This document shows positions 14,752 to 64,000 of a stretch of 64,000 bases of DNA, piece by piece. The DNA lies in NCBI RefSeq assembly GCF_003334785.1, contig NZ_QOWV01000002.1; one strand, given 5' to 3'. Every line of letters begins with the position of its first letter. The first letter of the stretch is position 1. The translations under genes and the position numbers were made by a program. A model generated the notes under the pieces. That model searched no databases. It was given only the letters and a program-made list of their open reading frames with translations, and was not told the origin of the DNA. Source of the stretch: Escherichia coli. GTDB taxonomy: Bacteria; Pseudomonadota; Gammaproteobacteria; Enterobacterales; Enterobacteriaceae.

Positions 14752-15543
14752 ATGGGTAAACTCACGGGCAAGACAGCACTGATTACGGGCGCATTGCAGG
14801 GAATTGGCGAAGGAATTGCCAGAACTTTTGCACGTCATGGCGCGAACCTAATCTTGCTGGATATCTCCCCTGAGATCGAAAAGCTGGCGGACGAACTGTG
14901 TGGTCGTGGTCATCGCTGTACGGCGGTTGTCGCCGATGTGCGTGACCCGGCGTCGGTAGCCGCAGCTATCAAACGCGCGAAGGAAAAAGAAGGGCGCATT
15001 GATATCCTGGTGAATAACGCAGGCGTTTGTCGTCTGGGCAGTTTCCTCGATATGAGCGATGACGATCGCGATTTCCATATTGACATCAATATTAAAGGCG
15101 TATGGAACGTCACGAAGGCGGTGCTGCCGGAGATGATTGCCCGCAAAGATGGTCGCATTGTGATGATGTCTTCAGTCACTGGTGATATGGTGGCCGATCC
15201 TGGCGAAACGGCGTACGCCTTAACGAAAGCGGCGATTGTTGGCCTGACAAAATCGCTGGCGGTGGAGTACGCGCAGTCTGGTATTCGCGTTAACGCCATT
15301 TGCCCGGGATACGTGCGCACACCAATGGCGGAAAGCATTGCCCGCCAGTCGAACCCGGAAGATCCAGAGTCGGTGCTGACTGAAATGGCGAAAGCAATCC
15401 CGATGCGTCGCCTCGCCGATCCGCTGGAAGTCGGCGAACTGGCGGCCTTCCTCGCATCGGATGAATCCAGCTATTTAACTGGTACACAGAATGTGATTGA
15501 TGGCGGCAGCACACTGCCGGAGACGGTTAGCGTCGGTATCTGA
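14752..15543 (+). CDS. ucpA: Short-chain dehydrogenase/reductase UcpA
   Basis: 263 aa from first ATG (MGKLTGKTALITGALQGIG, Rossmann motif); the ORF track begins at an upstream TTG. Confidence 0.9.
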   Translation: MGKLTGKTALITGALQGIGEGIARTFARHGANLILLDISPEIEKLADELCGRGHRCTAVVADVRDPASVAAAIKRAKEKEGRIDILVNNAGVCRLGSFLDMSDDDRDFHIDINIKGVWNVTKAVLPEMIARKDGRIVMMSSVTGDMVADPGETAYALTKAAIVGLTKSLAVEYAQSGIRVNAICPGYVRTPMAESIARQSNPEDPESVLTEMAKAIPMRRLADPLEVGELAAFLASDESSYLTGTQNVIDGGSTLPETVSVGI

Positions 15544-60519: not shown

Positions 60520-60591
60520 TTAGATCATCAGGGCAAAAGTACCGGCCCAAACGATGACCATAAAAGAAATGCCCATAAAGAAATATTTCAC
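60520..60591 (-). CDS. ypdK: Small membrane protein YpdK (23 aa)
   Basis: Minus-strand frame read by eye: (GTG)KYFFMGISFMVIVWAGTFALMI-stop; start codon here is GTG; lies between alaC and lpxP. Confidence 0.6.
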   Translation of the reverse strand: MKYFFMGISFMVIVWAGTFALMI

Positions 60592-62813: not shown

Positions 62814-63108
62814 AGAAAGTTATCCTGAAAATGGTTCACTGAGAACCTACGATGTTATGGCTGTATTTACATTTAATTAATCAGTATTTACATCGATATA
62901 ATAAATGACATCTCTTTGTGGTATATAAGAATAGTTCTCTGCGACAGGAAGCATATTCCTACAATTGTAAGACTAAAATACTTCTTGCGATAATAACTAC
63001 AACTGTAAGATAACCCTTTCAAAATGACCGTTGCTCTCTGATTTCTCATTTCATGCTCACCCAATATGATGGCGGCGTTTTCTAAAACTGTTAAAGAATG
63101 AGGTAAGT

Positions 63109-63744
63109 ATGAAACGTTTAATTATGGCCACGATGGTCACAGCAATTCTGGCATCTTCAACTGTATGGGCTGCTGATAATGCTCCGGTAGCGGCACAACA
63201 GCAAACTCAGCAAGTTCAGCAAACCCAGAAAACGGCAGCGGCAGCAGAGCGTATCTCTGAACAAGGTTTATATGCGATGCGTGACGTGCAGGTAGCGCGC
63301 CTGGCTCTGTTTCATGGCGATCCAGAAAAGGCAAAAGAACTGACCAATGAAGCTTCCGCTTTGCTGTCAGATGACAGTACCGAATGGGCAAAGTTCGCTA
63401 AGCCAGGTAAAAAGACCAATCTCAATGATGACCAATATATTGTCATTAATGCATCTGTCGGAATTTCTGAGAGTTATGTAGCAACTCCCGAAAAAGAAGC
63501 CGCGATAAAAATTGCCAATGAAAAAATGGCGAAAGGGGATAAAAAGGGCGCAATGGAAGAGCTTCGCCTGGCCGGTGTTGGCGTAATGGAAAACCAATAT
63601 CTGATGCCACTTAAACAGACTCGTAATGCACTTGCTGATGCGCAGAAACTGCTTGATAAAAAGCAATACTACGAGGCAAACCTGGCGCTTAAAGGTGCGG
63701 AAGATGGAATCATCGTCGATAGCGAAGCACTGTTTGTGAACTAA
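63109..63744 (+). CDS. yfdX: Periplasmic protein YfdX (EvgA-regulated)
   Basis: 211-aa ORF with signal peptide ([21 protein letters not shown]). Confidence 0.88.
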
Positions 63745-64000
63745 TGCTGACAGGCAGTATATTGAGGTAAAGGATTTAACTCCCTCCAGCCGACAATTTT
63801 TTATGACCACAATACGACAGGTTGTGGTCATAAAATTATTTGGCGCTCGCGGTGCTATAAACTCGCATTTTATATTCCTCAAAGTAAACCGCAATAATCC
63901 CGTGTCATCACAAATCATTTATTATGTTATGTTTTATGGTACGCTTTAAAAAGCGTAATCATACCCTTGCTTGTAAATCACCGGCGCTTCTTACAGTTGT

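Follow-up and report, generated by a model that had tools for sequence, protein, structure and literature searches.

Stem-loops, palindromic operators and transcription terminators provide the described systems that are closest to the element analysed here, an inverted repeat downstream of yfdX in Escherichia coli. The REP hairpins between malE and malF are intercistronic stem-loops that give rise to differential mRNA stability. The yfdX hairpin is similarly placed between a possibly more abundant upstream gene and co-induced downstream genes; unlike REP/BIME elements, it is single-copy and unrelated in sequence, and its downstream genes have a promoter of their own. A second class of related systems are operators of the TetR/GntR type, such as the RutR box (TTGACCA-NN-TGGTCAA). 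The half-sites ATGACCA/TGGTCAT of the yfdX repeat resemble this box, and both share the perfect palindrome, the TGACCA/TGGTCA half-sites, conserved arms and a free spacer. The yfdX half-sites are, however, separated by 15 nt rather than 2, a spacing that is inconstant between orthologues. The position of the repeat relative to a promoter is variable, and its vicinity does not encode a cognate regulator. With intrinsic terminators the element shares a hairpin and a T-containing tail 3' of a gene and before the next promoter; it differs by its AU-rich stem, its reversed run polarity and a tail that is not conserved across lineages.

A further class are the protective stem-loops of Rho-terminated transcripts. 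According to Dar and Sorek (2018, PMC6061677), the steady-state 3' ends of such E. coli transcripts are located right after stable stem-loops without a U-tract; rut sites are located just downstream of the stem-loop, which confers protection from PNPase and RNase II. The yfdX hairpin is likewise stable, on the sense strand and located after a stop codon, and has no U-tract in two of three lineage groups. Its expected role would be to halt 3'-5' exonucleases and to give the transcript a precise steady-state 3' end. It departs from this class by a partial U-tract in E. coli, and from a purely structural barrier in that the sequence of its stem is conserved far beyond need.

The yfdX-frc locus and its inverted repeat

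We analysed a window of 64 kb (the whole stretch of E. coli DNA considered here), which in the yfdX-frc region is the reverse complement of E. coli K-12 MG1655. EvgA boxes were searched with the pattern TTCYTACA-NN-TGTARGAA. The relevant features are:

62956-62973, + strand: EvgA box 1, TTCCTACAATTGTAAGAC, upstream of yfdX, whose transcript it would drive (1 mismatch to the pattern, 0 matches expected)
63109-63744, + strand: yfdX coding sequence, 211 aa, periplasmic YfdX family protein, PF10938 (ORF list and annotation)
63799-63812, + strand: left arm, 5' half of the stem, TTTTATGACCACAA, with a core GACCACAA kept in all lineages that bear the element
63813-63821, + strand: spacer or loop, TACGACAGG, varying freely between lineages
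63822-63835, + strand: right arm, 3' half of the stem, TTGTGGTCATAAAA
63836-63843, + strand: tail, TTATTTGG, 5 of 8 bases U in the RNA, a partial U-tract found in Escherichia only
63869-63898, + strand: sigma-70-like promoter TTTATA-18-AATAAT (consensus scan), 34 nt after the hairpin
63988-64000, continuing to 64005 past the window end, + strand: EvgA box 2, TTCTTACAGTTGTAAGAA, a perfect match to the pattern

The assignment of yfdX is confirmed by the RefSeq annotation of identical DNA (strain 720632; b2375 in MG1655), and Pfam matches PF10938 on YfdX homologues. The Gln-rich stretch after the signal peptide (window approximately 63175-63235, residues approximately 23-43) varies in length: Escherichia YfdX proteins in the homologue list range from 196 to 222 aa, and the stretch is 21 nt shorter in Yersinia. 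A table in Adams et al. (2021) places one position inside the gene (2494302, minus strand, 'internal', corresponding to window position 63209 approximately), the only yfdX entry found there; its categories (primary, internal, antisense) suggest a table of transcription starts.

The coding sequence ends at 63744, and frc starts 512 nt past the stop, beyond the end of the window. EvgA box 2 is located 152 nt 3' of the hairpin and about 250 nt 5' of frc. EvgA-binding inverted repeats have been described before both yfdX and yfdWUVE (Mullins et al. 2013, PMC3720670). Since EvgA boxes precede both yfdX and frc, a transcript boundary is expected between the two genes, and the repeat is located exactly where the yfdX transcript should end. 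Judged from its sequence, box 2 looks like the start of a separate frc-oxc-yfdVE unit; with two boxes, the locus thus resembles a pair of units, yfdX and frc-oxc-yfdVE, each driven by EvgA, rather than one yfdXWUVE operon. The TTTATA/AATAAT hexamers of the sigma-70-like promoter have been assigned to frc by RpoD genomic SELEX, a study in which binding of H-NS is also marked in the yfdX-frc spacer (Shimada et al. 2014, PMC3946193). In the alignment with Yersinia the promoter is not conserved, with a 6-nt deletion there.

The repeat search recovers a perfect inverted repeat with 14-nt arms (100% complementary) and a 9-nt spacer, which bears out the geometry proposed by a sequence-only reading of the same DNA. 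The interval given there, 63797-63835, has the correct end and starts 2 nt early, with 63797-63798 being two unpaired T's. Its placement at the yfdX-frc boundary, about 55 bp after the yfdX stop, agrees with the measured 54 nt, and its description of the repeat as AT-rich with the small number of G-C pairs (4 of 14). The element is thus part of the yfdX 3' untranslated region. T63813 and G63821 can add a 15th (U.G) pair to the stem. Among perfect inverted repeats with loops of 3-12 nt, it exceeds all others in the 64-kb window in length, and an arm of at least 14 nt appears in none of 100 dinucleotide shuffles (mean 0.0 per shuffle). On the + strand the RNA folds with -21 kcal/mol (z = -4.1; none of 200 shuffles equally stable). 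For the stem-loop of 14-15 bp the value is approximately -18 kcal/mol. The equivalent segment in MG1655 is 2493712..2493676 on the minus strand.

Two other observations concern repeated words in the region and in the window. A second inverted repeat, TACGCTTT-AA-AAAGCGTA (63940-63957; 8-nt arms, 2-nt spacer), is located in the same spacer; substitutions in strains AZ148 and MS10858 break its pairing, and it is probably nonfunctional. When one mismatch is allowed, the window contains 10 ten-mers that match ATGACCACAA, both arms among them, against 4.2 expected. This excess is weak, as the largest count in a shuffle is 9, and none of the 8 sites outside the repeat (for example 14904-14913 and 60554-60563) is paired as an inverted repeat.

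Copy number and conservation across lineages

The element is carried by 5404 of 5426 complete E. coli genomes; a 66-nt query retrieves 5408 of them, with a median of one place per genome. The plasmid collection yields five matches, four of them in records of 1.4-4.9 Mb that are apparently chromosomes and one in a 198-kb E. coli plasmid. The phage collection holds no copy, and no second copy was found across E. coli genomes, plasmids and phages. An assignment to a REP/BIME, ERIC or MITE-like family was rejected because the element is single-copy, absent from phages and near-absent from plasmids. A scan of the whole yfdX-frc spacer against Rfam 15 returns sub-threshold matches only, to eukaryotic microRNA and snoRNA models; the best are microRNA models with E = 0.05 and 27 bits, compared to a gathering score of 92.

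Two further candidates were considered and discarded. A small ORF of 48 aa (63803-63949), which begins with the ATG of the left arm, is not conserved and has no well-spaced Shine-Dalgarno sequence; the Yersinia frame ends after 4 codons (ATG ACC ACA ATA TGA). An Hfq-dependent small RNA derived from the 3' untranslated region does not fit Yersinia and the metagenome contig L018 (see below), which have no U-tail. Over the 50 nt 5' of the stem, E. coli and Yersinia show no conservation, which bears against a small-RNA seed, and a broad literature search on yfdX together with Hfq or ProQ retrieved nothing on yfdX. Most likely, the hairpin is an unannotated element of the ordinary, known end-of-gene kind whose stem sequence is unusually conserved.

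Close yfdX orthologues are restricted to few lineages, and the protein search finds very few with a YfdX identity between 65% and 90%. Outside E. coli proper, three groups were recovered. The first is a divergent Escherichia (L009), in which the hairpin and the downstream EvgA box are both present. The second is an IS-flanked yfdX-frc-oxc island of Yersinia vastinensis and Y. alsatica, together with a related metagenome form (L010, L019-L024; YfdX 82-84% identical to E. coli). The third is L018, an enterobacterial metagenome contig with the gene order hdeA-hdeD-yfdX-frc, whose YfdX is 68% identical. In Y. alsatica and relatives (L019-L022, approximately 450-2320), genes of IS1, IS3-family or Y1 transposases precede yfdX-frc-oxc. 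By its sequence the Yersinia segment looks like a horizontally acquired island with an Escherichia-like promoter, EvgA boxes and hairpin. A 241-nt scaffold labelled Limosilactobacillus vaginalis DSM 5837 (NZ_GG693475.1) also carries the 3' end of yfdX and the start of the hairpin; its protein is 100% identical to residues 158-211 of E. coli YfdX, and the scaffold is almost certainly a contamination of that assembly.

E. coli, the Yersinia island and L018 have the same arrangement, namely EvgA box, yfdX, hairpin, EvgA box and frc, with box 2 represented by TTCTTACACGCGTAAGAA in the Yersinia island and by TTCTGACAGAGGTAAGAA in L018. The distance from the yfdX stop to the hairpin is 54 nt in E. 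coli, 50 nt in the Yersinia island and 69 nt in L018, whereas the distance from the hairpin to the downstream EvgA box is 152 nt, about 165 nt and 414 nt, respectively. The element therefore tracks the end of yfdX and not the frc promoter.

Between E. coli and Y. vastinensis, 492 of 636 positions of the yfdX coding sequence are identical (77%), with 56% identity at third codon positions. The spacer outside the arms retains 103 of 235 positions (44%) and the 9-nt loop 5 of 9, compared to 28 of 28 in both arms. In place of TTATTTGG, the tail of Y. vastinensis reads CTCTCTGT (CTCTCTGY in the Yersinia type). In L018 the stem retains only the 8-bp core GGCCACAA / TTGTGGCC and the AU-rich base is lost; two G-C pairs are gained at the top of the stem and stability is kept (-20.1 kcal/mol). 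Because of these two new pairs, the distance from CACAA to TTGTG is 11 nt in L018, compared to 9 nt in Escherichia and Yersinia. The core GRCCACAA/TTGTGGYC is found in all four lineages, with nine pairs invariant, and hairpin stability ranges from -16.8 to -20.1 kcal/mol across all of them. At the other yfdX loci examined a stable hairpin follows the stop everywhere, with unrelated sequence; in these cases the next gene after yfdX is either a convergent one for a sensor kinase, or frc at a distance of only about 120 nt. Homology with the hairpins of short-spacer yfdX-frc loci (L033/L034, L037) was rejected, since the shared words GGCCAT and CACAA occur in a different order and are regarded as coincidence.

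These data bear on the proposal that the repeat simply serves yfdX as an efficient Rho-independent terminator of the canonical type. In favour of it are a stability of -18 kcal/mol and a location on the coding strand, 54 nt past the stop and ahead of the next transcription unit, whose EvgA box 2 follows after 152 nt. The eight bases 3' of the stem include five T's, and a simple, lenient terminator scan reports the hairpin, on the + strand only. The stem, however, has G-C pairs at only 4 of 14 positions, and its six basal pairs, which adjoin the tail, consist of A-U throughout. The T-run is located on the 5' side and the A-run on the 3' side, the reverse of the A-tract/GC-stem/T-tract arrangement of canonical terminators elsewhere in the window, whose stems are GC-rich. 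Moreover, the U-rich tail is absent in the Yersinia type (CUCUCUGY) and in L018 (ATGTCCTG, or AUGUCCUG in the RNA), despite the conserved stem. We thus regard this proposal as very improbable, in line with the sequence-only reading, which had already doubted that the repeat is a strong intrinsic terminator.

Pairing pattern and the operator alternative

The strand on which the element acts can be addressed by its variants. The pair 63806/63828 is A-U in K-12, G.U in L023 and L024, and G-C in strain HS-02, in metagenome L028 and in L018. On the + strand the G.U variant of L023 folds with -17.5 kcal/mol, compared to -16.8 kcal/mol for a Yersinia relative; on the - strand the same variant has an A.C mismatch and folds with -12.1 compared to -15.7 kcal/mol. 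Within E. coli, variants were counted as exact 41-mers across about 5405 genomes:

K-12 form: 4673 genomes
G to A change in the loop, which turns the closing U.G into U-A and the repeat into one of 15 bp: 396 genomes
compensated double change from A-U to G-C: 257 genomes
either single-arm intermediate (full-length exact match): 0 genomes
remaining other variants: about 80 genomes

Neither of the two common variants weakens the stem, which is either kept or made stronger. A single event may be the origin of the double change in all 257 genomes, and double changes in a palindrome could also arise by one-step template switching, without selection on the RNA. A formal covariation analysis, based on few independent lineages, yields a weak signal, with one clear covarying pair and nine invariant pairs, with 31 of 500 shuffles reaching the observed score.

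Natural disruptions of the element also exist. In E. coli O19:H7 730V1 (NZ_CP061764.1, 2517-3590) an IS903B is inserted exactly inside the hairpin loop. The 9-bp target duplication is the loop itself, with TACGACAGG on both sides, and the arms of this natural mutant are approximately 1 kb apart; a second element, IS5, is located between the yfdX stop and the hairpin. In E. coli DX6 (NZ_CP126345.1, 2232-3000) yfdX lacks its 3' part owing to an IS1A insertion and an adjacent deletion, which also eliminate the hairpin and approximately 190 nt of the spacer; EvgA box 2 and frc are retained.

The sequence-only reading had preferred a dimeric operator, that is, a DNA palindrome bound by a dimeric or tetrameric transcription factor that would regulate the frc promoter region or act as a roadblock. 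The conservation of the arm sequence itself (28 of 28 positions against 44% in the spacer, E. coli versus Yersinia) is consistent with such a site, as are the 8-bp core present in all four lineages with nine pairs that never vary, and a spacer that is free in sequence, as expected between half-sites. In addition, the surrounding spacer binds RNA polymerase and H-NS in genomic SELEX (PMC3946193). Several properties of the repeat argue against an operator. The two cores are 11 nt apart in L018, compared to 9 nt in Escherichia and Yersinia, a change most dimeric operators would not tolerate, and the centre-to-centre distance of the arms (23 bp) is unusual, as is the 15-nt separation of the RutR-like half-sites when compared to the 2 nt of the RutR box. 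Depending on the lineage, between 152 and 414 nt separate the repeat from the EvgA box and frc promoter, and the sigma-70-like promoter close by is not shared by Yersinia. The L023 variant lacks symmetry, the neighbouring genes include no constant regulator, and no second copy of the site occurs in E. coli genomes, plasmids or phages. Both 14-mers are absent from the literature searched, in which matches to 9-mers are unrelated primers. To our knowledge, none of the sites of EvgA, RcsB, GadE, CRP, NikR, CusR, NrdR, NtrC, RutR or the DnaA box fits both sequence and spacing.

The pairing pattern, the change in spacer length and the variable promoter distance together favour a hairpin in the sense-strand RNA over a spaced dimeric operator. 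The preference for an operator is therefore not supported: the spacing is inconstant, the distance to the promoter variable, and the changes at pair 63806/63828 are tolerated in the sense RNA only. We consider a DNA operator unlikely.

The putative 3' end of the yfdX message

Our favoured explanation, held with modest confidence and drawn from sequence comparison, places the 3' end of the yfdX mRNA at the hairpin, which would define or protect this end as a weak terminator or as a barrier to exonucleases rather than serve as an operator. The yfdX-sense transcript would fold into the stem-loop of 14-15 bp 54 nt past the stop, and this structure would form or protect the 3' end of the EvgA-induced message. 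With regard to the route, we infer two contributions. In E. coli the partial U-tract (UUAUUU) may cause some intrinsic termination. What the lineages have in common, however, is a hairpin lacking a U-tract, in keeping with the protective stem-loops of Rho-terminated transcripts. Other transcripts would be stopped further 3', for example by Rho within the 512-nt untranslated spacer, and trimmed back to the hairpin, which would then shield the trimmed yfdX transcript from 3'-5' exonucleases. Such a process would separate yfdX from frc-oxc-yfdVE and set the ratio of yfdX to frc. With respect to Rho, one 60-nt window located 121-180 nt past the stop (30-90 nt after the hairpin) contains 14 C and 5 G, and the adjacent windows are balanced.

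Published maps of transcript ends were also consulted. In the supplement of Adams et al. (2021), no 3' end is listed at MG1655 positions 24936xx, nor any end-of-gene 3' end for yfdX; yfdX is induced by EvgA and acid, and may be unexpressed in those samples. The SMRT-Cappable-seq tables do not mention yfdX.

The sequence-only reading had named a processing site as its second option. This part is compatible with a 3'-end hairpin, as the element is a sense-strand hairpin at a fixed distance from the yfdX stop. In its stronger form, the processing proposal states that a ribonuclease or RNA-binding protein reads the stem and thereby adjusts how stable the yfdX mRNA or a read-through RNA is; a candidate would be RNase III, with the stem extended by an outer GCCGA/UUGGC helix as its substrate. 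Action on the sense strand and a stem sequence conserved beyond the needs of pairing are consistent with this proposal. An outer helix of 5 bp is possible in E. coli (63789-63793 with 63840-63844), and folds of the Yersinia type and L018 allow a similar helix from different sequences; helices of 5 bp, however, easily arise by chance. RNase III substrates are typically longer than the inner stem of 14-15 bp, the loop, which is the usual recognition surface, is not conserved, and no known protein-binding RNA motif was recognised, with Rfam giving nothing above noise. Taken as a whole, processing of this kind is distinctly unlikely to be the main role of the element.

A 3'-end hairpin leaves one feature unexplained, namely the identity of 28 of 28 arm positions compared to 44% in the spacer, which hints at sequence-specific recognition. 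A purely structural barrier should drift via compensatory or wobble changes once neutral sites are saturated. As the arms are identical between Escherichia and Yersinia and the core is invariant, room is left for recognition by sequence. We therefore tentatively add, as a possibility of rather low probability, that some protein or ribonuclease reads the GRCCACAA/UUGUGGYC helix, as RNA or DNA, and thereby sets read-through from yfdX into the oxalate genes. Sequence-specific recognition would account for the identity of the arms between Escherichia and the IS-borne Yersinia island amid near-random surroundings. Apart from the conservation of its stem sequence, the element is most likely an ordinary end-of-gene hairpin.

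If the 3'-end reading is correct, yfdX and frc-oxc-yfdVE would constitute two EvgA-driven units that are split by a conserved 3'-end hairpin, in contrast to the usual description of the locus as a single yfdXWUVE operon. Such an organisation would bear on the interpretation of expression data from this acid and oxalate tolerance locus, and on its engineering. The conserved stem would also provide a small and cheap test case for the question whether some terminator-like hairpins are recognised by sequence.
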